Assembly (NCBI RefSeq): GCF_044324785.1 | Contig: NZ_CP172127.1 | From: Escherichia coli | Lineage (GTDB): Bacteria > Pseudomonadota > Gammaproteobacteria > Enterobacterales > Enterobacteriaceae | Reading direction: 5' to 3' (one strand) | Length of the DNA: 64,000 bases | In this document: in pieces, positions 8,869-36,788 of the stretch | Layout of the letters: each line of letters opens with the position of its first letter | Position numbering within the stretch: position 1 is the first letter of the stretch | Translations under genes and position numbers: made by a program | Notes under the pieces: model-generated | Told to the model about the DNA's origin: nothing | The model's database searches: none | Seen by the model: the letters and a program-made list of their open reading frames with translations, nothing else

Positions 8869-8896
8869 ATGTTCTGGATAAGAATTATCCAATTCT

Positions 8897-9006
8897 AAAA
8901 AAAAGCCCGAACGACTGTTCGGGCTTGTCTTTTTATATGTTGGAAAATCAGTGGCAATGCAATGGCCCAACAGAAAATAAAATCTGTGACAATAAAGGCA
9001 TATAAC
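8897..9006 (-). ncRNA. micC: MicC small RNA (about 109 nt), antisense regulator of porin mRNAs
   Basis: Minus-strand sequence GTTATATGCCTTTATTGTCACAGATTTTATTTTCTGTTGGGCC... ending in hairpin GCCCGAACAGTCGTTCGGGC plus U-run matches MicC as I recall it; lies between ydbK and ompN. Confidence 0.85.
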
Positions 9007-9233
9007 CCGCGCAGAATAACGTATAGCAAATTAAAAGTATAATTTTTATTTTGTATGTATTATCTCCAATACATTCACCAGACTTATTATCATTTCAGAA
9101 GAATTATTTGATTAAGGTTTTACTTAAGGCGTAACAAATAATATTTATCGGCTAACTGAACTTCTCCTTTAGGATGTTTTCACTCCCCGAAATGGGGATA
9201 AAAGGCAAATAAAATAACTAAAGGATTTATTCA

Positions 9234-13815: not shown

Positions 13816-13937
13816 AAAAAAAAGCCGACTCATCAAAGTCGGCGTCGTACGAATCAATTGTGCTATGCAGTAATTCAAAAAAGGAAGTAAGACAATATGG
13901 AGCGCAACGCCCATCGCTTGACGTTGCATTCACCTGC
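13816..13937 (-). ncRNA. fnrS: FnrS small RNA (about 122 nt), FNR-activated anaerobic sRNA
   Basis: Minus-strand GCAGGTGAATGCAACGTCAAGCGATGGGCGTTGCGCTCC...GCCGACTTTGATGAGTCGGC plus U8 matches FnrS as I recall it. Confidence 0.85.
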
Positions 13938-17281: not shown

Positions 17282-18796
17282 TCAGGATGATTTATTCATA
17301 GCAGGAACCAACAAAAATGCGATAAATAACAGACCACTGATTAGCAGAAAGGTATCCGAAAATGCCATAGTTTGCGCCTCCCTCAGCATCAATTGACTTA
17401 ATAATTTGGTTGAAGCCAGTATTTCCGATGTCTGGTCACTTCCACTGCGATTAAAAAACAAAGCACTTCTGGAAATGAAGTCATTCACCGTATGGGGAAC
17501 AGAAACCATTTTTTCACCCATTCTCGAAAAATGAAAATTAGTTCGATTATTGAGAATAGAGCCACACAGGGCAATACCAATCGCGCCCCCAAGATTACGT
17601 GTTAAATTAAATACACCAGAGGCTAACTTCAGCCGTTCTTTTGGAATTCCCCCCAGCGTTAATGTTACGATGGGGGCCATCGCAAACTGCTGCGAAATCC
17701 CTCTAATTGCCTGTGGAAACAGTAACTCCTGCCATCCCCATTCGTGGGTTATCGGGGTAAAAAGATACATTGAAAACACAAATCCACCCAGCCCCGCCAT
17801 CAACAGCCATCGCAGATTTATTTTTTTACTTAACCAGAAGTAAAAGGGAACAGAAAATAACTGGAAAATACCTGTTGTGCAAACGGCAAAACCTATCTCT
17901 TCGGCATTTAATCCGCGAACCTGCCCCAAAAACACAGGTATTAAATATACAGTAGAGAATATCCCAACCCCTCCAGAAAAAGAAAAAAAACATCCCAGCG
18001 TGAAATTTTTATCCTTAAAAGCATGAAGATCCATTATCGGATTGGATATTGTAAGTGTACGCACAGCAAATAAAATAAAACTCACCAATGCCAGAACTGA
18101 TGTCAGCAAAATAGTATTATCATCCAGCCATCCCCAGCGCGCTCCTTCTTCAACGGTATATTCCAGACATCCCAGTGTCATGGCCAACAGGATAATACTC
18201 GGATAATCAGCAACTTTCAGTAAAGAGAGATCAGGTTTATCAAAATTAACCAGAAAAGGAATACTCAAAACTAAATATATGCCAGGTAATATATTGATAT
18301 AAAATAGCCATCGCCAGTCGAGATTATCAGTGATCCAGCCCCCCAGAGTTGGCCCTAGCGTCGGTGACAGTGAGGCCAGCGCACTGACTACCGCAGCAGC
18401 CAACCCCAGCTCTTTACCCTGGTAATAAATAAACGCCGTCGTGAAAACTAAAGGGATCATGGATGCGCCAGCCGCTCCCTGTAAAGCACGAAACAAAATC
18501 ATGATCTGAATATTCCATGCAAGTCCACACGCGATACTCATTAAAGTAAATATTCCCGCGGATAGAGTAAAAAGCCAACGAGTGGAAAATACCCGTGACA
18601 GCCACCCAGAGAGCGGAATAACAATAATCTCAGCAATTAAATAGCTGGTCTGAAGCCAGGCCATTTCGTCTTTACCTGCGGACAGACCACCACCTATTTC
18701 ATTTAGGGATGACGATACAATTTGAATATCAAGCTGAGCAATAAATAATCCCATACACATACTGGCGAAAGCAATATGTTTACGCATAGACATCAT
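17282..18796 (-). CDS. MFS transporter, EmrB/QacA-like multidrug-efflux type (504 aa)
   Basis: 504 aa, highly hydrophobic with many predicted TM segments; start overlaps upstream MFP stop by 4 nt (ATGA). Confidence 0.8.
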   Translation of the reverse strand: MMSMRKHIAFASMCMGLFIAQLDIQIVSSSLNEIGGGLSAGKDEMAWLQTSYLIAEIIVIPLSGWLSRVFSTRWLFTLSAGIFTLMSIACGLAWNIQIMILFRALQGAAGASMIPLVFTTAFIYYQGKELGLAAAVVSALASLSPTLGPTLGGWITDNLDWRWLFYINILPGIYLVLSIPFLVNFDKPDLSLLKVADYPSIILLAMTLGCLEYTVEEGARWGWLDDNTILLTSVLALVSFILFAVRTLTISNPIMDLHAFKDKNFTLGCFFSFSGGVGIFSTVYLIPVFLGQVRGLNAEEIGFAVCTTGIFQLFSVPFYFWLSKKINLRWLLMAGLGGFVFSMYLFTPITHEWGWQELLFPQAIRGISQQFAMAPIVTLTLGGIPKERLKLASGVFNLTRNLGGAIGIALCGSILNNRTNFHFSRMGEKMVSVPHTVNDFISRSALFFNRSGSDQTSEILASTKLLSQLMLREAQTMAFSDTFLLISGLLFIAFLLVPAMNKSS

Positions 18797-19824
18797 CTCT
18801 CATCAACACTGACGGTGACGGACAGTCCCGGGCGAAGAAGTTGCTTTAATTCCTTTGCGTCGTCAAATGCAATCCGTACCGGGACACGCTGAACAATTTT
18901 GGTGAAATTGCCAGTGGCATTTTCTATCGGAATCAAGCTGAAACTGGCTCCTGTCGCTGGGGAAAGGCTTTCAATGTGACCGTGAAACACTTCCCCTTTG
19001 AGAATATCAGCACGGATCTCAGCCTTCATTCCTGGCTTCATTCCCGCTATTTGGTTTTCTTTATAATTTGCATCAACCCACAACTCACTGACTGGTACTA
19101 GTGAAACTAACGATGTGCCGCCTTCCACCCAACTGCCTGTATGGGCGCTGCGGTTTGCGACAATGCCATCAATCGGCGCACGAACAAGGGTATATTCCAG
19201 ATCCAGTAGTGCCTGAGTCAAAGCGGCCTGAACTTCTTCGATACTTGCACGTACGTTTTCTTCCTGAGCAGATAAAACTGCCAGCCGTTGCTTCTCCACC
19301 ATGAAATCGTTCGCGGCTTTGCGCTCCTTTGCTGCGACCTGCTGGTAGTCAAACCTGGCGTTATCAATAATTTGTTGCGATATTGCCGCTGATTGTGCGA
19401 GTTTTTCATAACGTTCAGTATCTCGCAGGCGCTTTTGCTCCTCATGTTTTACTGCCTGCCATGTTTCACTGGCACTTTGAATTATCGACTGCTGCATCGC
19501 AATAGTGGCTTGAATGCTTTCGAGATTGGCTTTGCTACTTTTTATTTTTGCCTCAAGCCTGGCGACATTTGCACGATAATCCCGATCATCGAGACGCAGG
19601 ATAATATCGCCTTTTTTTACGCTCTGATTATCGCGCACCTCTATAGCAGAAATATAACCAGAAACTTTACTTGCCACCGTGGTGATATTACCACCAATGT
19701 AAGCATCATCCGTCGTCTGTATAAATCTTCCTTTGCTTACCCACCAGATAAAAAAGACAACGCCAGCCAAAATAATACCGATCGCTACCACCCCAATAAG
19801 CTGTTTTTTAGAAATTATCATCAC
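18793..19824 (-). CDS. HlyD/EmrA-family membrane fusion protein (343 aa)
   Basis: N-terminal TM anchor (VVAIGIILAGVVFFIWW), long coiled-coil region, C-terminal beta-barrel segment typical of MFPs. Confidence 0.8.
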   Translation of the reverse strand: MMIISKKQLIGVVAIGIILAGVVFFIWWVSKGRFIQTTDDAYIGGNITTVASKVSGYISAIEVRDNQSVKKGDIILRLDDRDYRANVARLEAKIKSSKANLESIQATIAMQQSIIQSASETWQAVKHEEQKRLRDTERYEKLAQSAAISQQIIDNARFDYQQVAAKERKAANDFMVEKQRLAVLSAQEENVRASIEEVQAALTQALLDLEYTLVRAPIDGIVANRSAHTGSWVEGGTSLVSLVPVSELWVDANYKENQIAGMKPGMKAEIRADILKGEVFHGHIESLSPATGASFSLIPIENATGNFTKIVQRVPVRIAFDDAKELKQLLRPGLSVTVSVDER

Positions 19825-19917
19825 TCTTTACACCGTATATATCCGGAAACTTGCATTCGTCATATTTAAAATTTAACATGGCTTATTTGATGATTTCTGA
19901 CAAAATACCTACTGTAA

Positions 19918-20733
19918 ATGACAATCACACTGCAACCCAAAGCATCACCAGGGCATCACATTATCGGACTGGATTCGGAACATCTGAATGGAGGCACAGT
20001 TCCCTGGCATAAACATCTCTATGCCCAGTTGCTTTACCCGGCTGAAGGAGTCGTTCGTGTATGGGCTGGAGAAAGCGTCTGGCTAGTCCATGCCAGCAGC
20101 GCGCTTTGGCTGCCCCCACAAATGCCGCATAAGTTTGTTGCGACAGGCAACGTACTTTTAAAAACCGTACTGGTTTCAGAAGCGGAAAGTGAAACGCTGG
20201 GAAAAGTTTGCTTCATGACGGGTATTTCACCCCTGTTAAGAGAATTACTAATTGCAATTAACCAACTTCCACCGTCGCAAAGTACCACAGATAAACAACA
20301 GTTACGTTTTTCAGCCCTCGAGACACTGATACTTCAGGAAATAAAAATGGGGGTGAAAATGTCACTTGAACTCCCTTGGCCAAATGATGAGCGGCTACAG
20401 CAGCTTTGTGAGAATTTGCTAAACAACCAAGGGTATCTACCAACACTGGATAATCTAGCGGATAAAATTAACGTCAGTAGCCGTACACTCATGCGCTTAT
20501 TTGTTAAAGAGACGGGATTAACATTTCGCCACTGGGTTCAGCAAATGCACGTTATTTCTGCAGTGACGCTTCTTGATGATGGATATTCGTTGACCAAAAT
20601 TGCCCATCGTCTGGGCTATGCCTCAGCTGAATCGTTCGGCAATATGTTTAAGCGTCGAACGGGCTACTCGCCCGGTAAATTTACTCGTCGATTAACGATG
20701 CATGATTATGCAATCACAAGACAAATGATTTAA
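19918..20733 (+). CDS. AraC/XylS-family transcriptional regulator with N-terminal cupin-like domain (271 aa)
   Basis: C-terminal double HTH (KIAHRLGYASAESFGNMFKRRTGYSPGKF); divergent from the MFP-MFS operon. Confidence 0.8.
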   Translation: MTITLQPKASPGHHIIGLDSEHLNGGTVPWHKHLYAQLLYPAEGVVRVWAGESVWLVHASSALWLPPQMPHKFVATGNVLLKTVLVSEAESETLGKVCFMTGISPLLRELLIAINQLPPSQSTTDKQQLRFSALETLILQEIKMGVKMSLELPWPNDERLQQLCENLLNNQGYLPTLDNLADKINVSSRTLMRLFVKETGLTFRHWVQQMHVISAVTLLDDGYSLTKIAHRLGYASAESFGNMFKRRTGYSPGKFTRRLTMHDYAITRQMI

Positions 20734-20803: not shown

Positions 20804-20897
20804 ACCGGTCACCAGGACCCCAGGCCGGATTTAAGACGAGGATGCACTGCTGTGTGTACTGTAGAGTCTGGCGGATGTCGACAGACTCTATTTTTTT
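20804..20897 (+). ncRNA. mcaS: McaS (IsrA) small RNA
   Basis: ACCGGTCACCAGGACCCCAGGCCGGATTTAAGACGAGGATGCACTGCTGTGTGTACTGTAGAGTCTGGCGGATGTCGACAGACTCTATTTTTTT; GGA motifs plus terminal hairpin and U-run; -35/-10 candidates ttggca/tataac upstream. Confidence 0.8.
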
Positions 20898-20905
20898 ATG
20901 CAGTT

Positions 20906-29433: not shown

Positions 29434-30465
29434 ATGATCGCTGAACTGTTTACAAATAATGCGCTTAATCTGGTCATTATTTTCGGTAGCTGCGCAGCAT
29501 TGATTCTGATGAGCTTTTGGTTTCGCCGCGGAAATCGTAAAAGAAAAGGTTTTTTATTCCATGCGGTGCAATTTTTAATCTACACCATAATTATCAGTGC
29601 TGTTGGTAGCATCATTAATTATGTTATAGAAAACTATAAACTCAAATTTATCACCCCAGGCGTTATCGATTTTATCTGTACGTCCCTGATTGCGGTTATT
29701 CTGACGATTAAGCTATTTCTGCTGATTAATCAGTTTGAAAAACAGCAGATTAAAAAAGGTCGCGATATCACCAGTGCGCGGATTATGTCGCGTATCATCA
29801 AAATCACCATTATTGTGGTGCTTGTTCTGCTTTATGGCGAACATTTCGGCATGAGCCTTTCTGGCTTGTTGACCTTTGGTGGTATTGGTGGTCTGGCTGT
29901 CGGTATGGCCGGTAAAGATATTCTGAGTAACTTCTTTTCCGGGATTATGCTCTATTTCGACCGTCCTTTTAGTATTGGCGACTGGATCCGTTCACCGGAC
30001 AGAAATATCGAAGGTACAGTAGCGGAAATTGGCTGGCGAATTACCAAAATTACGACCTTTGATAATCGTCCATTGTACGTACCGAACTCGCTGTTTTCGT
30101 CAATCAGCGTAGAAAACCCTGGACGAATGACCAACCGGCGCATTACCACGACCATTGGTTTACGTTATGAGGATGCGGCAAAAGTGGGCGCTATTGTCGA
30201 AGCCGTACGTGAGATGCTGAAAAATCACCCGGCCATCGACCAGCGACAAACCCTACTGGTTTATTTCAACCAGTTTGCTGACTCTTCATTGAATATTATG
30301 GTTTATTGCTTTACCAAAACCACGGTATGGGCTGAATGGCTTGCTGCACAGCAAGACGTTTATTTGAAGATTATCGATATTGTACAGTCACACGACGCGG
30401 ACTTTGCCTTCCCCAGCCAGACGCTGTATATGGATAACATTACACCGCCGGACCAGGGTCGCTAA
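29434..30465 (+). CDS. ynaI: MscS-family mechanosensitive channel YnaI (343 aa)
   Basis: 343 aa; N-terminal TM helices followed by MscS beta domain. Confidence 0.9.
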
Positions 30466-30682
30466 ATCAGACATCACTGGCGTTATCCACAAGGGTAACG
30501 CCAGTTCCCATTACATCAATGCTTCACAATATACATAGTCCGACTGTACGCCACATCTTCAGGGTTATTAATGGGATAACCTTTCAGCCACGGCTTGATT
30601 AATCGTCCATTGGTATATTGATAAATTGGTGCAATCGGTGCTTGCTCCATGAGGATTTTTTCTGCCGCATTGTAATCGGCAT

Positions 30683-30691
30683 TACGCGCTT
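30683..30691. repeat. IS1 target-site duplication, left copy (TACGCGCTT)
   Basis: identical 9-mer immediately flanks both IS1 ends. Confidence 0.9.
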
Positions 30692-30746
30692 GGTGATGCT
30701 GCCAACTTACTGATTTAGTGTATGATGGTGTTTTTGAGGTGCTCCA

Positions 30747-31022
30747 GTGGCTTCTGTTTCTATCAGCTGTCCCTCCTGTTCAGCTACTGACGGGGTGGTG
30801 CGTAACGGCAAAAGCACCGCCGGACATCAGCGCTATCTCTGCTCTCACTGCCGTAAAACATGGCAACTGCAGTTCACTTACACCGCTTCTCAACCCGGTA
30901 CGCACCAGAAAATCATTGATATGGCCATGAATGGCGTTGGATGCCGGGCAACTGCCCGCATTATGGGCGTTGGCCTCAACACGATTTTACGTCACTTAAA
31001 AAACTCAGGCCGCAGTCGGTAA
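30747..31022 (+). CDS. insA: IS1 InsA (91 aa)
   Basis: [43 protein letters not shown]... zinc-finger/HTH InsA. Confidence 0.95.
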
Positions 31023-31444
31023 CCTCGCGCATACAGCCGGGCAGTGACGTCATCGTCTGCGCGGAAATGGACGAACAGTGGGGCTATGTCGGGGCTAAAT
31101 CGCGCCAGCGCTGGCTGTTTTACGCGTATGACAGTCTCCGGAAGACGGTTGTTGCGCACGTATTCGGTGAACGCACTATGGCGACGCTGGGGCGTCTTAT
31201 GAGCCTGCTGTCACCCTTTGACGTGGTGATATGGATGACGGATGGCTGGCCGCTGTATGAATCCCGCCTGAAGGGAAAGCTGCACGTAATCAGCAAGCGA
31301 TATACGCAGCGAATTGAGCGGCATAACCTGAATCTGAGGCAGCACCTGGCACGGCTGGGACGGAAGTCGCTGTCGTTTTCAAAATCGGTGGAGCTGCATG
31401 ACAAAGTCATCGGGCATTATCTGAACATAAAACACTATCAATAA
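30941..31444 (+). CDS. insB: IS1 InsB reading frame (expressed as InsAB' by -1 frameshift)
   Basis: 167-aa ORF in the -1 frame overlapping the insA 3' end. Confidence 0.9.
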
Positions 31445-31459
31445 GTTGGAGTCATTACC

Positions 31460-31468
31460 TACGCGCTT
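31460..31468. repeat. IS1 target-site duplication, right copy (TACGCGCTT)
   Basis: identical to 30683-30691. Confidence 0.9.
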
Positions 31469-32963
31469 TAACGGTATTTTCCGTTGATGCCTGGGCCAGT
31501 ACTTTGTCGTATGCCGGATTGTTAAAGCGTGAAATATTCCCTGAATGCGTTGACGTTAACAACGTAAGGAAAGTGGAGGGTTCATTATAATCCCCTACCC
31601 ATGAGGCGCGGATAACATCAAAATTGCCGGTGTTACGGCTATCGATATAGGTTTTCCATTCCTGATTCTGCAATTTAACATCTACGCCAAGGTTCTTTTT
31701 CCACATCGATGCTACAGCAATCGCAATTTTTTGATGGTTTTCTGAAGTGTTATACAAAAGCGTCAGCTTCAGCGGTTTTTGCGGACCATAACCAGCTGCG
31801 CTCAACAAAGTTTTTGCCTGCGCATTCAGTTCTTCCTGACTCATTTGTTCAAACGGCGAAGGCTCCGGCGTAAAACCGGCAGTAACATCTGGTGTAAAAT
31901 GCCACGCTGGCTTTTCCCCCGTCCCCAACACTTTTTCGGTCATCAGGCGGCGATCTATCGTCATACTTAATGCCAGGCGAACACGCTGATCGGCCGTCGG
32001 CCCTTTTTGCGTGTTAAACGCATAATAATAGGTCCCGAGCTGCGGCGGCGTATAAACCTGCCCCGGAATATCCTTCAACAGCTTCTGATACATATTTTTC
32101 GGGAAGGATTCGGTGATATCAATATCCCCCGCGAGGTAACGCTTAGTGGCTGCGGATTCCTGATTAATTGGCAAGAAGGTCACTTTTTGCAGTACCGTTT
32201 TGGCGTTATCCCAATAATGGGTATTCGGTACCACGACCAGTTTTTCATTGACTACGCGCTCTTCAAGAACATAAGCGCCATTACCGATCAGTTTTCCGGG
32301 TTTCGTCCACTCTTTAATGCTTTCTACGTTGGCTTTTTGCACCGGGAAGAAGGCAAAGTTAGCGGTTAAATTCACAAACCACGGCAACGGTTTATCAAGC
32401 TGGATTTTCAAAGTATGGGCATCAACTGCGGTGACGCCAAGCTGGTCAGGCGTGGCTTTACCATCAATAATCGCCTGTGCGTTGTTGATTCCCGCCAGCG
32501 CGGCAAACCATGCAAATGGCGACAATGTTTTTGGGTCCACCAGACGTTGCCAGCTGTAGACAAAATCTTGCGCCGTTACCGGTGTGCCATCCGCCCATTT
32601 TGCGTTATCGCGCAAGGTAAATGTCCAGATACGGTTGTCATTACTTTTCCACTGAGTCGCAACGCCGGGGACAATCTCCCCTTTCTCGTTCTGATTCACC
32701 AGTCCTTCAAACAGATCGCGAATGACCTGAATCTCTGGCAGGCCCACGGCTTTAGCGGGATCCAGCGACGCAGGTTCATCTTTAATGTGGCGCACCAACT
32801 CCTGCTTCTCTGCCAGTACTGTGCCGCTCGGAACTTCTGCAGCATACGAAAGAGAAATGCTGCTGACCAACAGCGCACAACACGTGACTGAAACAGAGTG
32901 CTTCATAAGTTTCCCTCTAACCGACATTAAAATTGATGCGTAATTATTTGTTTCGCCTTAAAG

Positions 32964-32998
32964 AAATGCAAACAACTTCCATCAAAAAAGTGACAAAG
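32964..32998. promoter_or_regulatory. conserved motif upstream of mppA (copy A); candidate operator/promoter element, possibly for PgrR(YcjZ)
   Basis: AAATGCAAACAACTTCcatCAAAAAAGTGA matches 28 of 32 positions with a copy upstream of mpaA (36954-36988). Confidence 0.45.
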
Positions 32999-33242
32999 GA
33001 AGCATCAAATGTTTTAAGTATCAATATATCAAATCAGATTTAGCGTAAATAATAGTCTCCAAAATGCGGTAAAGCACATAGAACTCCGAACACTACGTTC
33101 GGGCTTCGCACGTTCAAACCCGTTTTCGGTATCATAATCAGCATCTGTCGCCATTGTGCGAAGAATAAAAAATGACCAAAACGTTGAAAGGAACTGAGAA
33201 TACGTTAAGAGAAGAATTAAATTAATGTATCAGCAAGTAGTG

Positions 33243-34142
33243 CTAAACAGCACCTTTATACTTCAGCCTATCTATAAATAATGAGAATGCCGAGCCAGCA
33301 TGTCGACGGTGTGGATAGTACAGGTGATAACCGGGTAAATCTGGTGTGAATTTATCCAAAACACGTATCAGTTTTTTTTCTTTAATAGCCCGCTCAACCT
33401 GATCATAAGGTAGATACGCCAACCCATGCCCATCAATTGCAGCATCAATGATCAGGTCTATCGTATTCAGTAAAAGCTGACCTTCCATGCGAACACGAAC
33501 TTCACGTCCACCGCGTATTAATCTCCAGCGATTTGCTGTACCCGATGTGGGAAGATACAAATTAATTGCCTGATGATCTATTAATTGTGACACTGACGTT
33601 GGAGCACTTCGACGAGAAAAATAATCCGGTGAGCCAACAATAGCCATTGGTATATCTGGCCCGATTCGAATGGCGATCATATCTTTATCCATCTCCCCAC
33701 CCAGACGGACGCCTGCATCAAAACGTTCAGAAACGACATCGGTCAAACCATAATCAATGGTAAGCTGGATATCAATTTCAGGATGCGATTTCAGGAATGT
33801 GCGCATAGCTGGTAACAATATCGTTTTTGCTGCATGTTCTACAGTAGTAATACGTATTGTCCCGGATGGGCGGTTCTGCAGATCGCTCAGGGATGTCAGG
33901 GCAGAATCTATGTCATGCAACATAGGGCCAAGAACAGACAAAAGATGCTCGCCCGCTTCAGTGGGTACAACGCTGCGCGTGGTTCGCGTCAGAAGCCGCA
34001 ATCCTAATCGTTCTTCTATACGGCGCACTATCTGGCTTAAAGCTGACTGCGCCATGCTCAGGCGGGCTGCTGCGCGAGTGAAGCTACGCTCCTCTGCAAC
34101 GACGACAAACGCCATCAGATCAGCGATTTCTTCACGCTTCAT
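33243..34142 (-). CDS. ycjZ: LysR-family regulator YcjZ (I believe renamed PgrR, peptidoglycan-recycling regulator) (299 aa)
   Basis: 299 aa; N-terminal LysR HTH (AARLSMAQSALSQIVRRIEERLG); divergent from ycjY. Confidence 0.85.
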   Translation of the reverse strand: MKREEIADLMAFVVVAEERSFTRAAARLSMAQSALSQIVRRIEERLGLRLLTRTTRSVVPTEAGEHLLSVLGPMLHDIDSALTSLSDLQNRPSGTIRITTVEHAAKTILLPAMRTFLKSHPEIDIQLTIDYGLTDVVSERFDAGVRLGGEMDKDMIAIRIGPDIPMAIVGSPDYFSRRSAPTSVSQLIDHQAINLYLPTSGTANRWRLIRGGREVRVRMEGQLLLNTIDLIIDAAIDGHGLAYLPYDQVERAIKEKKLIRVLDKFTPDLPGYHLYYPHRRHAGSAFSLFIDRLKYKGAV

Positions 34143-34267: not shown

Positions 34268-35200
34268 ATGAGGAACGGAATGATGAATAATAAAGTCAGC
34301 TTCACTAACAGCAATAATCCAACCATCTCTTTGTCTGCAGTGATCTATTTCCCTCCAAAATTTGATGAAACCCGTCAGTATCCGGCAATTGTGGTATCTC
34401 ACCCAGGTGGGGGCGTTAAAGAGCAAACGGCCGGAACCTATGCCGAAAAACTGGCGGAAAAGGGATTTGTCACTATTGCTTATGACGCATCTTATCAAGG
34501 TGAAAGCGGCGGCGAGCCGCGTCAGTTAGAAAACCCATACATTCGTACTGAAGACGTCAGTGCCGTGATTGATTACCTGACAACGCTTTCTTATGTCGAC
34601 AATACCCGAATTGGTGCGATGGGAATTTGTGCCGGTGCAGGATATACAGCCAATGCTGCAATTCAGGATCGCCGCATCAAGGCCATCGGTACTGTTAGTG
34701 CGGTCAATATTGGTTCGATGTTCCGTAATGGTTGGGAAAACAATGTGAAATCTATTGATGCCCTACCATACGTTGACGCGGGTTCAAACGCCCGAACCAG
34801 CGATATTAGCAGCGGAGAATACGCCACTATGCCACTGGCACCAATGAAGGAGTCCGATGCGCCGAACGAAGAACTGCGTCAGGCCTGGGAGTATTACCAC
34901 ACCCCTCGCGCGCAGTATCCAACAGCACCGGGTTACGCTACTTTGCGCAGCCTTAACCAGATTATTACCTATGATGCTTACCATATGGCGGAAGTGTACC
35001 TGACTCAGCCGATACAGATTGTGGCGGGCAGCCAGGCAGGGAGCAAATGGATGAGTGACGACCTGTACGATCGAGCATCAAGCCAGGATAAACGCTATCA
35101 CATTGTTGAAGGCGCAAACCATATGGATCTTTATGACGGCAAAGCCTATGTGGCTGAAGCAATTTCAGTATTAGCTCCGTTCTTTGAGGAAACTCTGTAA
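34268..35200 (+). CDS. ycjY: alpha/beta hydrolase, dienelactone-hydrolase-like with Cys nucleophile, YcjY (310 aa)
   Basis: GxCxG nucleophile elbow (MGICAGAG) in an alpha/beta-hydrolase-like sequence; start may be a few codons downstream. Confidence 0.8.
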   Translation: MRNGMMNNKVSFTNSNNPTISLSAVIYFPPKFDETRQYPAIVVSHPGGGVKEQTAGTYAEKLAEKGFVTIAYDASYQGESGGEPRQLENPYIRTEDVSAVIDYLTTLSYVDNTRIGAMGICAGAGYTANAAIQDRRIKAIGTVSAVNIGSMFRNGWENNVKSIDALPYVDAGSNARTSDISSGEYATMPLAPMKESDAPNEELRQAWEYYHTPRAQYPTAPGYATLRSLNQIITYDAYHMAEVYLTQPIQIVAGSQAGSKWMSDDLYDRASSQDKRYHIVEGANHMDLYDGKAYVAEAISVLAPFFEETL

Positions 35201-36132
35201 TGAAACATATTCAAATCCGCAATAGTGATATGGCCTGGCATATTGCTGCCAATATTCAGTTTCCACCAAATTTTGATGAGTCAAAACAGTATCCGGCGAT
35301 TATCAGCGTCCATCCTTTTGGCAGTTGTAAGGAGCAGACGTCTGGCAATATCTATGGCAAGGCATTGGCTGAAAAAGGCTATGTCGTTCTCGCTTATGAC
35401 GCCAGTTTCCAGGGAGAATCTGGTGGGGAGCCTCGTTGGATAGAAGATCCGACACAGCGCGTTGAGGATATTAGCCGTGTTATCGATTATGCAGTAACTC
35501 TGCCATATGTTGATGCTGAACGCATTGGCGTGCTGGGTGTGTGTGGGGGGGGTGGCTATGCCATTAATGCCGCGCTGACAGAAAAACGAATTAAAGCTGT
35601 AGTGAGTATTACGGGTGTTAATATCGGGCGTCTTTTTCGAGAAGGTTTCAGCAATTACGATCCGATTGGCGCATTGAATGCAATGGCGTCGCAACGAACC
35701 AAAGAGGCTCGTGGTGGAGAATTACAGATCAACGAATTACTTCCCGCCAGCCTGGATGCAGCAAAAGCCCATGGACTGACCGAACGCGATGTTTATGAAG
35801 CAACTGACTACTATAAAACACCACGCGGGCAACAACCGGGAGGTGCGACAAAAATGTTGTTCTCACATGCACAGAAAACGCTGGCCTGGGATGCCTTCGC
35901 ATTTACTGAAGTGTTACTGACTCAGCCGGTGATGGTAGTAGTTGGTGAAAAAGTCGGTGCCTTCGGTGCTTATCGTGATGGACTGGAAGTCTATGGCCGG
36001 GCGATGGTTTCGCAGGATCGTCAGTTAGTTTCGTTACCCGATTTCTCACATTATGAACTGTATGACAAACCGGAAGCAGTTCAGGAGGCGCTGGAAAAAG
36101 TTATTCCTTTTTTCAACACCCATCTGGGATAA
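35200..36132 (+). CDS. paralogous alpha/beta hydrolase with Cys nucleophile (310 aa); corresponds in position to a region I recall as the K-12 ymjD remnant
   Basis: Clear paralog of the upstream gene (shared blocks AYDASFQGESGGEPR, LGVCGGGG); start overlaps ycjY stop. Confidence 0.75.
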   Translation: MKHIQIRNSDMAWHIAANIQFPPNFDESKQYPAIISVHPFGSCKEQTSGNIYGKALAEKGYVVLAYDASFQGESGGEPRWIEDPTQRVEDISRVIDYAVTLPYVDAERIGVLGVCGGGGYAINAALTEKRIKAVVSITGVNIGRLFREGFSNYDPIGALNAMASQRTKEARGGELQINELLPASLDAAKAHGLTERDVYEATDYYKTPRGQQPGGATKMLFSHAQKTLAWDAFAFTEVLLTQPVMVVVGEKVGAFGAYRDGLEVYGRAMVSQDRQLVSLPDFSHYELYDKPEAVQEALEKVIPFFNTHLG

Positions 36133-36137
36133 GTTTC

Positions 36138-36788
36138 ATGAGAAATATTATGAAAAAAGTACTCATTCTTGGTGCTGGCGGTCAGATAGCCCGCCATGTG
36201 ATTAATCAACTGGCAGATAAACAAACCATTAAACAAACTTTATTTGCTCGTCAGCCAGCAAAAATACACAAACCCTATCCAACTAATAGCCAGATTATTA
36301 TGGGGGATGTACTGAATCATGCAGCACTGAAGCAGGCCATGCAGGGACAGGATGTTGTGTATGCCAACCTTACGGGGGAAGATTTAGATATTCAGGCAAA
36401 TTCAGTGATCGCTGCGATGAAAGCCTGTGATGTTAAACGTCTGATCTTTGTTCTTTCCCTCGGTATTTATGATGAAGTTCCAGGAAAATTTGGCGAATGG
36501 AATAATGCAGTTATTGGTGAACCCCTAAAACCATTCCGCAGGGCTGCGGATGCAATTGAGGCTTCTGGACTGGAATATACAATTCTTCGCCCTGCCTGGC
36601 TGACTGATGAAGATATTATTGATTATGAGCTTACCTCACGCAATGAACCATTCAAAGGTACGATCGTATCACGTAAGAGTGTCGCCGCATTAATTACAGA
36701 TATCATCGATAAACCTGAGAAACACATTGGTGAGAATATAGGCATCAATCAACCCGGGACTGATGGCGATAAACCCTTCTTCATGTAA
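36138..36788 (+). CDS. NAD(P)H-binding NmrA/SDR-like protein (216 aa); corresponds in position to a region I recall as the K-12 ymjC remnant
   Basis: Rossmann motif VLILGAGGQIARH near the N-terminus; true start may be MKKVLILG at 36150. Confidence 0.7.
   Translation: MRNIMKKVLILGAGGQIARHVINQLADKQTIKQTLFARQPAKIHKPYPTNSQIIMGDVLNHAALKQAMQGQDVVYANLTGEDLDIQANSVIAAMKACDVKRLIFVLSLGIYDEVPGKFGEWNNAVIGEPLKPFRRAADAIEASGLEYTILRPAWLTDEDIIDYELTSRNEPFKGTIVSRKSVAALITDIIDKPEKHIGENIGINQPGTDGDKPFFM

Follow-up and report, generated by a model that had tools for sequence, protein, structure and literature searches.

An IS1 insertion at codon 483 of mppA in an Escherichia coli strain, with probable loss of MppA function

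The stretch of Escherichia coli DNA analysed here, referred to as the window (64,000 nucleotides of contig NZ_CP172127.1, assembly GCF_044324785.1), contains uspE, ynaJ, ynaI, mppA, pgrR and ycjY, followed by mpaA and ycjG, which is the usual order of these genes; mppA is split by an insertion sequence (Table 1). When we removed the insertion sequence in silico, together with one of the two nine-base repeats that flank it, a 537-codon mppA frame ending in MYIVKH* was restored with its stop codon at 30516–30518, as the initial annotation of this DNA had proposed. The restored protein aligned end to end with the crystallised MppA of E. coli K-12 (3o9p and 4toz), from which it differs only by G197I, N205K and K215E, and it scored 1171 bits against 3o9p vs. 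approximately 530 bits against OppA structures. Its score against the NCBIfam OppA equivalog was 635, below the cut-off of 947, and an MppA-specific model was absent among its NCBIfam matches, so the identity of the gene rests on the solved K-12 protein. In the alignment to 3o9p, the residues that contact Mtp (Lys-20, Gln-267, Arg-402, Arg-411, and Ser-413 in mature numbering, i.e., the precursor number minus 22) are conserved. As a complete three-domain polypeptide (mature residues 1–515), however, the product falls short: the open reading frame ends after residue 460, and residues 461–515 are cut off by the IS1. Judged by its sequence, the interrupted gene is orthologous to mppA and deficient in length alone, and hence an mppA pseudogene.

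Elsewhere in the window, positions 34268–36788 hold tandem alpha/beta-hydrolase paralogues (ycjY-like; 34268–35200 and 35200–36132) followed by an SDR/NmrA-like gene (36138–36788); many other E. coli have a single hydrolase there, or lack the SDR gene. Gene content between smrA and abgR (17282–20733) differed among strains in a comparison with loci L004–L011. Here the window shares with L005 genes for an MFS transporter, a membrane-fusion protein and an AraC-type regulator that are absent in most of the comparators, and L006 has a phage-type integrase island in this position. Three known small RNAs were found at full length, namely FnrS (13820–13937, minus strand), MicC (8889–9009, minus strand) and McaS/IsrA (20804–20899, plus strand), none of them near the IS1, and an Rfam scan revealed no RNA family in or beside mppA. 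Related loci show further strain-specific lesions in this neighbourhood: an IS200C lies between uspE and ynaJ in strain A10 (L001, 5847–6305), and abgB is frameshifted in strain N3 (L002, 1–314).

Table 1. Features of the interrupted mppA locus (positions in the window)
Feature	Position	Strand	Remarks
Complete IS1, IS1A type	30692–31459	+	768 bp; ends and length read from the sequence
IS1 left terminal inverted repeat (IRL)	30692–30714	+	18 of 23 positions agree with IRR
IS1 right terminal inverted repeat (IRR)	31437–31459	-	Source of the GG of the Arg codon and of the TAA stop
insA, 91 aa	30747–31022	+	
insB' reading frame	30941–31444	+	Joined to insA by a -1 frameshift
Target-site duplication, left copy (9 bp, TACGCGCTT)	30683–30691	.	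Directly outside the IS1
Target-site duplication, right copy (9 bp, TACGCGCTT)	31460–31468	.	Identical to the left copy
Interrupted mppA, whole extent	30516–32906	-	IS1 inside
Truncated mppA open reading frame, 483 aa including signal peptide	31455–32906	-	482 native residues, Arg and stop
Orphaned mppA 3' remnant	30516–30691	-	Codons 483–537, stop and one 9-mer; no start codon of its own
mppA–pgrR intergenic (promoter) region	32907–33242	.	Unaltered; 100% identical to relatives with intact mppA

The transposase genes of the inserted element are read on the plus strand, opposite to mppA. The first bases of the element are GGTGATGCTGCCAACTTACTGAT and its last bases are the reverse complement of GGTAATGACTCCAACTTATTGAT; its terminal inverted repeats are imperfect, and this end pattern occurs at only these two places in the window (0 expected from shuffles). 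The frameshift motif TTAAAAAAC (A6C) lies at 30996–31004, where a -1 shift yields the InsAB' transposase fusion, a product of 232 aa that is intact, has no internal stop and matched the NCBIfam model for IS1 family transposases (NF033558) with 243 bits (cut-off 100). Alignment with the IS1A of K-12 gave 766 matches in 768 positions (99.7%); both differences, at 262 and 687, fall on third codon positions, and many E. coli plasmids hold copies that are 100% identical to the element in the window and are annotated as members of the IS1A family. Every IS1-defining feature that can be checked in the sequence was found in this element; the sequence requirements for transposition are all intact, and the copy is active-looking. 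A second IS1 or another long repeat, which would be a sign of a composite transposon or rearrangement, was not found in the window.

The target-site duplication of IS1 is typically 9 bp, and simple insertion of IS1 with a duplication of this length is the classic way in which genes are inactivated in E. coli and Shigella. The element in the window is bordered by two identical copies of TACGCGCTT. A comparison with mppA alleles of related strains, which the initial annotation had named as a check, provided 13 loci with intact mppA, in all of which TACGCGCTT is single-copy at the matching position; the first 10 are related E. coli loci and the other three (L016, L019, and L020) are 100% identical to the flanks of the window. 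In the alignments of these three empty sites, the nine bases of the lone TACGCGCTT align to both flanks of the window. Moreover, the two flanks run colinear with the empty site, and neither a deletion nor an inversion adjoins the element; together with the identity to the empty site, this indicates a simple insertion without adjacent rearrangement.

The truncated reading frame starts with MKHSVSV at 32906 and ends with ENTVKARR*. Its additional Arg codon, AGG, takes the A from the duplicated target and GG from the end of the IS1, and the TAA that follows (31455–31457) lies within the right end of the element. The resulting 483-aa product still matches the Pfam family SBP_bac_5. Each sequence claim made in the initial annotation about the element, its flanking 9-mers and the replacement of the last 55 residues of MppA by one IS-encoded Arg was reproduced. 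We likewise found no change in mpaA (242 aa), in ycjG (321 aa) or in the region upstream of mppA, in line with what the initial annotation had stated for mpaA/ycjG and the upstream motif. The gene beyond the mppA remnant, ynaI, lies convergent to mppA with its end at 30465, and we therefore expect no polar effects of the insertion on other genes. A consensus scan of 30300–33300 returned only promoter-like matches at 9 of 12 positions, five in number vs. 3.5 expected from shuffles, and we therefore give no weight to an outward promoter borne by the IS1.

Since assemblers often put multicopy repeats such as IS1 in the wrong place, we weighed the alternative that an assembly error put the element into mppA and that the true genome carries an intact gene. 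When the IS1 and one 9-mer were removed, the window was 100.000% identical over 21,614 bp to contig ABDBPQ010000016.1 of GCA_020368225.1, a public E. coli draft genome in which mppA is intact; this contig is among the 307 contigs carrying the 537-aa allele. The identity of L019 and L020 to the window flanks likewise surrounds an empty site. A single public sequencing run (Logan collection) yielded an assembled contig, SRR31073010_66, with which 2 samples are listed. Over 11,475 bp it was 100% identical to the window, and it contains mppA codons 1–482 fused to 28 nt of the IS1 IRR, where it ends, with the junction at the same base as in the window. A contig end just inside an insertion sequence is how short-read assembly normally breaks at a repeat. 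The left junction was not recovered from single-run assemblies, in which a look-up of the AbgT and YnaI alleles of the window led to empty-site loci or to contig ends, and just one of the two junctions was therefore found in an independent assembly. A misjoin, however, would not produce an exact 9-bp repeat of a target that near-identical relatives carry only once, and SRR31073010_66 has its junction at exactly the same base; we consider an assembly error exceedingly unlikely. The possibility of an artefactual junction, which the initial annotation had named as the finding that would overturn it, is thus largely answered, by the right junction though not by the left. The IS1 insertion in mppA is real and, with zero substitutions over 21.6 kb, recent. 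One of the three loci identical to the window flanks, L020 (GCA_044688645.1, DBBFKU010000021.1, 3583–5097), ends inside mppA at 1,515 nt from the 3' end with no insertion sequence at the break, which may reflect plain assembly fragmentation or another interruption further upstream.

The interrupted allele is rare. The intact 537-aa allele was present on 307 public contigs and the truncated 483-aa product on one, SRR31073010_66, and an IS1 at this base of mppA was found in 0 of 5,426 complete E. coli genomes. Thirty-four records in that search cover at least 80% of the query, all with spans different from that of the window, and in the three that we inspected the IS1 lies in the mppA–pgrR spacer or in pgrR. 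The spacer and the start of pgrR (window 32907–33300; L013, L014, L015, and L009) constitute a recurrent landing zone for IS1: in the 34 complete genomes the element lies near the spacer with several different spans, approximately 15 ETEC-like genomes share one position, and one of the three inspected genomes has a frameshifted pgrR. Interruption of mppA itself was seen in the MppA of E. coli HVH 153 (EQS53724.1, P0012), a protein of 453 aa whose last residues, VMLPTY, are encoded by the left end of IS1 (G GTG ATG CTG CCA ACT TAC TGA); this ending marks an independent, oppositely oriented IS1 insertion near mppA codon 447. For Shigella flexneri, too, there are truncated MppA entries on record, some of them labelled partial, and some of the truncated database entries may be contig-end fragments. 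A full-text literature search for mppA with IS1, insertion sequence or pseudogene returned no relevant paper.

What the insertion removes can be read against the domain limits of MppA, in which domain 1 comprises residues 7–46, 165–263, and 487–515 and domain 2 comprises residues 264–486 (PMC3173086). Truncation after mature residue 460 deprives domain 2 of residues 461–486 and domain 1 of its whole third segment, 487–515. In all close solved homologues (MppA, and OppA of several genera) the alignment extends through the lost C-terminal stretch to its final residue, which suggests that this stretch is an integral part of the fold. It is conceivable that the insertion is real and that the 483-aa protein nevertheless keeps useful activity, in which case the strain would not be MppA-deficient: the promoter and start codon of mppA are untouched, and about 90% of MppA is kept, including the signal peptide and every ligand contact listed for the Mtp complex, as Lys-20, Gln-267, Arg-402, Arg-411, and Ser-413 (the contacts named in PMC3173086) all precede the truncation point. 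Against this, the 55 missing residues take away parts of both domains in a region retained to its final residue in all close solved homologues, and the mppA mRNA lacks its native 3' end and runs antisense into the IS1, which may affect expression. We regard residual activity as improbable. The description of the strain as probably MppA-deficient in the initial annotation is reasonable given the loss of the end of domain 2 and of the last segment of domain 1; these losses make loss of MppA function likely, and we infer it for this strain with considerable confidence.

MppA is described as a peptidoglycan-specific binding protein that works with OppBCDF, and OppA "does not facilitate transport" of murein tripeptide (PMC3173086). 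MppA/Opp acts as a high-affinity scavenger of released muropeptides, and AmpG recycles periplasmic turnover products (PMC10622912). As it is MppA that delivers murein tripeptide to OppBCDF, and OppA does not transport this peptide, loss of MppA would close the Opp route for this peptide. The suggestion in the initial annotation that murein tripeptide uptake would then depend on Opp had the mechanism backwards, because MppA is the protein that feeds OppBCDF (PMC3173086; PMC10622912). Without MppA, recycling would rest on AmpG and would lack high-affinity scavenging from the medium.

Taken as a whole, we find it highly probable that a recent, simple IS1 jump into codon 483 of mppA occurred and that MppA function was lost as a result. 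One active-looking copy of IS1 moved into mppA by simple insertion in a recent ancestor of this strain, duplicating 9 bp of the target. With the promoter and start of mppA intact, translation would now end at the TAA in the right end of the IS1 and give a 483-aa precursor from which the last 55 residues are gone. In the bilobed binding-protein fold these residues complete domain 2 and supply the last segment of domain 1, and the truncated MppA would therefore most likely be misfolded and degraded in the periplasm, or at least fail to close on its ligand and to dock to OppBCDF. The strain would be expected to lack the MppA/OppBCDF-dependent route for taking up and scavenging free murein tripeptide, whereas recycling through AmpG and the two cytoplasmic enzymes, MpaA and YcjG, are predicted to stay intact. 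The sequences themselves show the insertion, how it is built, that it is recent and that it is rare; the loss of protein function and the phenotype are inferred.

We also asked whether the loss of mppA was positively selected rather than neutral, such that a knockout that turned off the high-affinity scavenging of free peptidoglycan peptides, an altered peptidoglycan-fragment economy, or an MppA-linked regulatory effect on drug tolerance helped the clone. The gene has been hit repeatedly, as the HVH 153 allele, with its IS1 at another codon and in another orientation, and the truncated Shigella flexneri entries illustrate, and loss of MppA/OppBCDF is described, in a heading of PMC10622912, as suppressing toxic recycling in a ΔldcA background. 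If selection were at work, the repeated arrival of IS1 within mppA and upstream of it, across E. coli and Shigella, would identify this locus as a contingency target. The allele with the IS1 is, however, found on one contig (2 samples) vs. 307 contigs with an identical intact allele, the absence of any SNP over 21.6 kb relative to the intact relative gives no sign of spread, the site is shared by no complete E. coli genome among the 5,426 searched, and the truncated entries labelled partial may be contig-end fragments. Nothing in this analysis supports selection for mppA loss, and we judge an adaptive knockout to be unlikely.

Under the preferred reading, that of a recent IS1 insertion that inactivated mppA, the gene in this genome should be annotated as a pseudogene interrupted by IS1, and we predict that the strain can still recycle through AmpG but has lost the ability to scavenge free murein tripeptide by way of MppA/OppBCDF. 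With its empty site, GCA_020368225.1 forms with this strain a clean natural pair in which the contribution of MppA could be tested. Insertional inactivation by IS1 is textbook knowledge, and both the element and the role of MppA have been characterised; the sole new item is a strain-specific allele, and no new biology is implied.

Compared with known IS1 elements of the IS1A/IS1R type, the copy described here is alike in its length of 768 bp, its imperfect repeats of approximately 23 bp, its insA/insB' arrangement with an A6C site for the -1 shift and its 9-bp target repeat, and it differs from known IS1 insertions only in location, as this base of mppA is free of IS1 in the complete E. coli genomes of the collection. 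The IS1 insertions in the spacer and in pgrR of the 34 complete genomes involve the same element and the same neighbourhood; unlike in the window, mppA is intact in the three inspected, and any effect of those insertions would be regulatory rather than one of truncation. The MppA proteins of HVH 153 and Shigella flexneri are C-terminally truncated like that of the window, whereas their different codons, IS1 orientation and lineages point to independent events. Finally, the restored 537-aa protein resembles the MppA of E. coli K-12 (b1329; PDB 3O9P and 4TOZ) end to end, with three substitutions and the same ynaI–mppA–pgrR context; in contrast to the K-12 gene, mppA is split here, and its open reading frame stops after residue 482 and one Arg.
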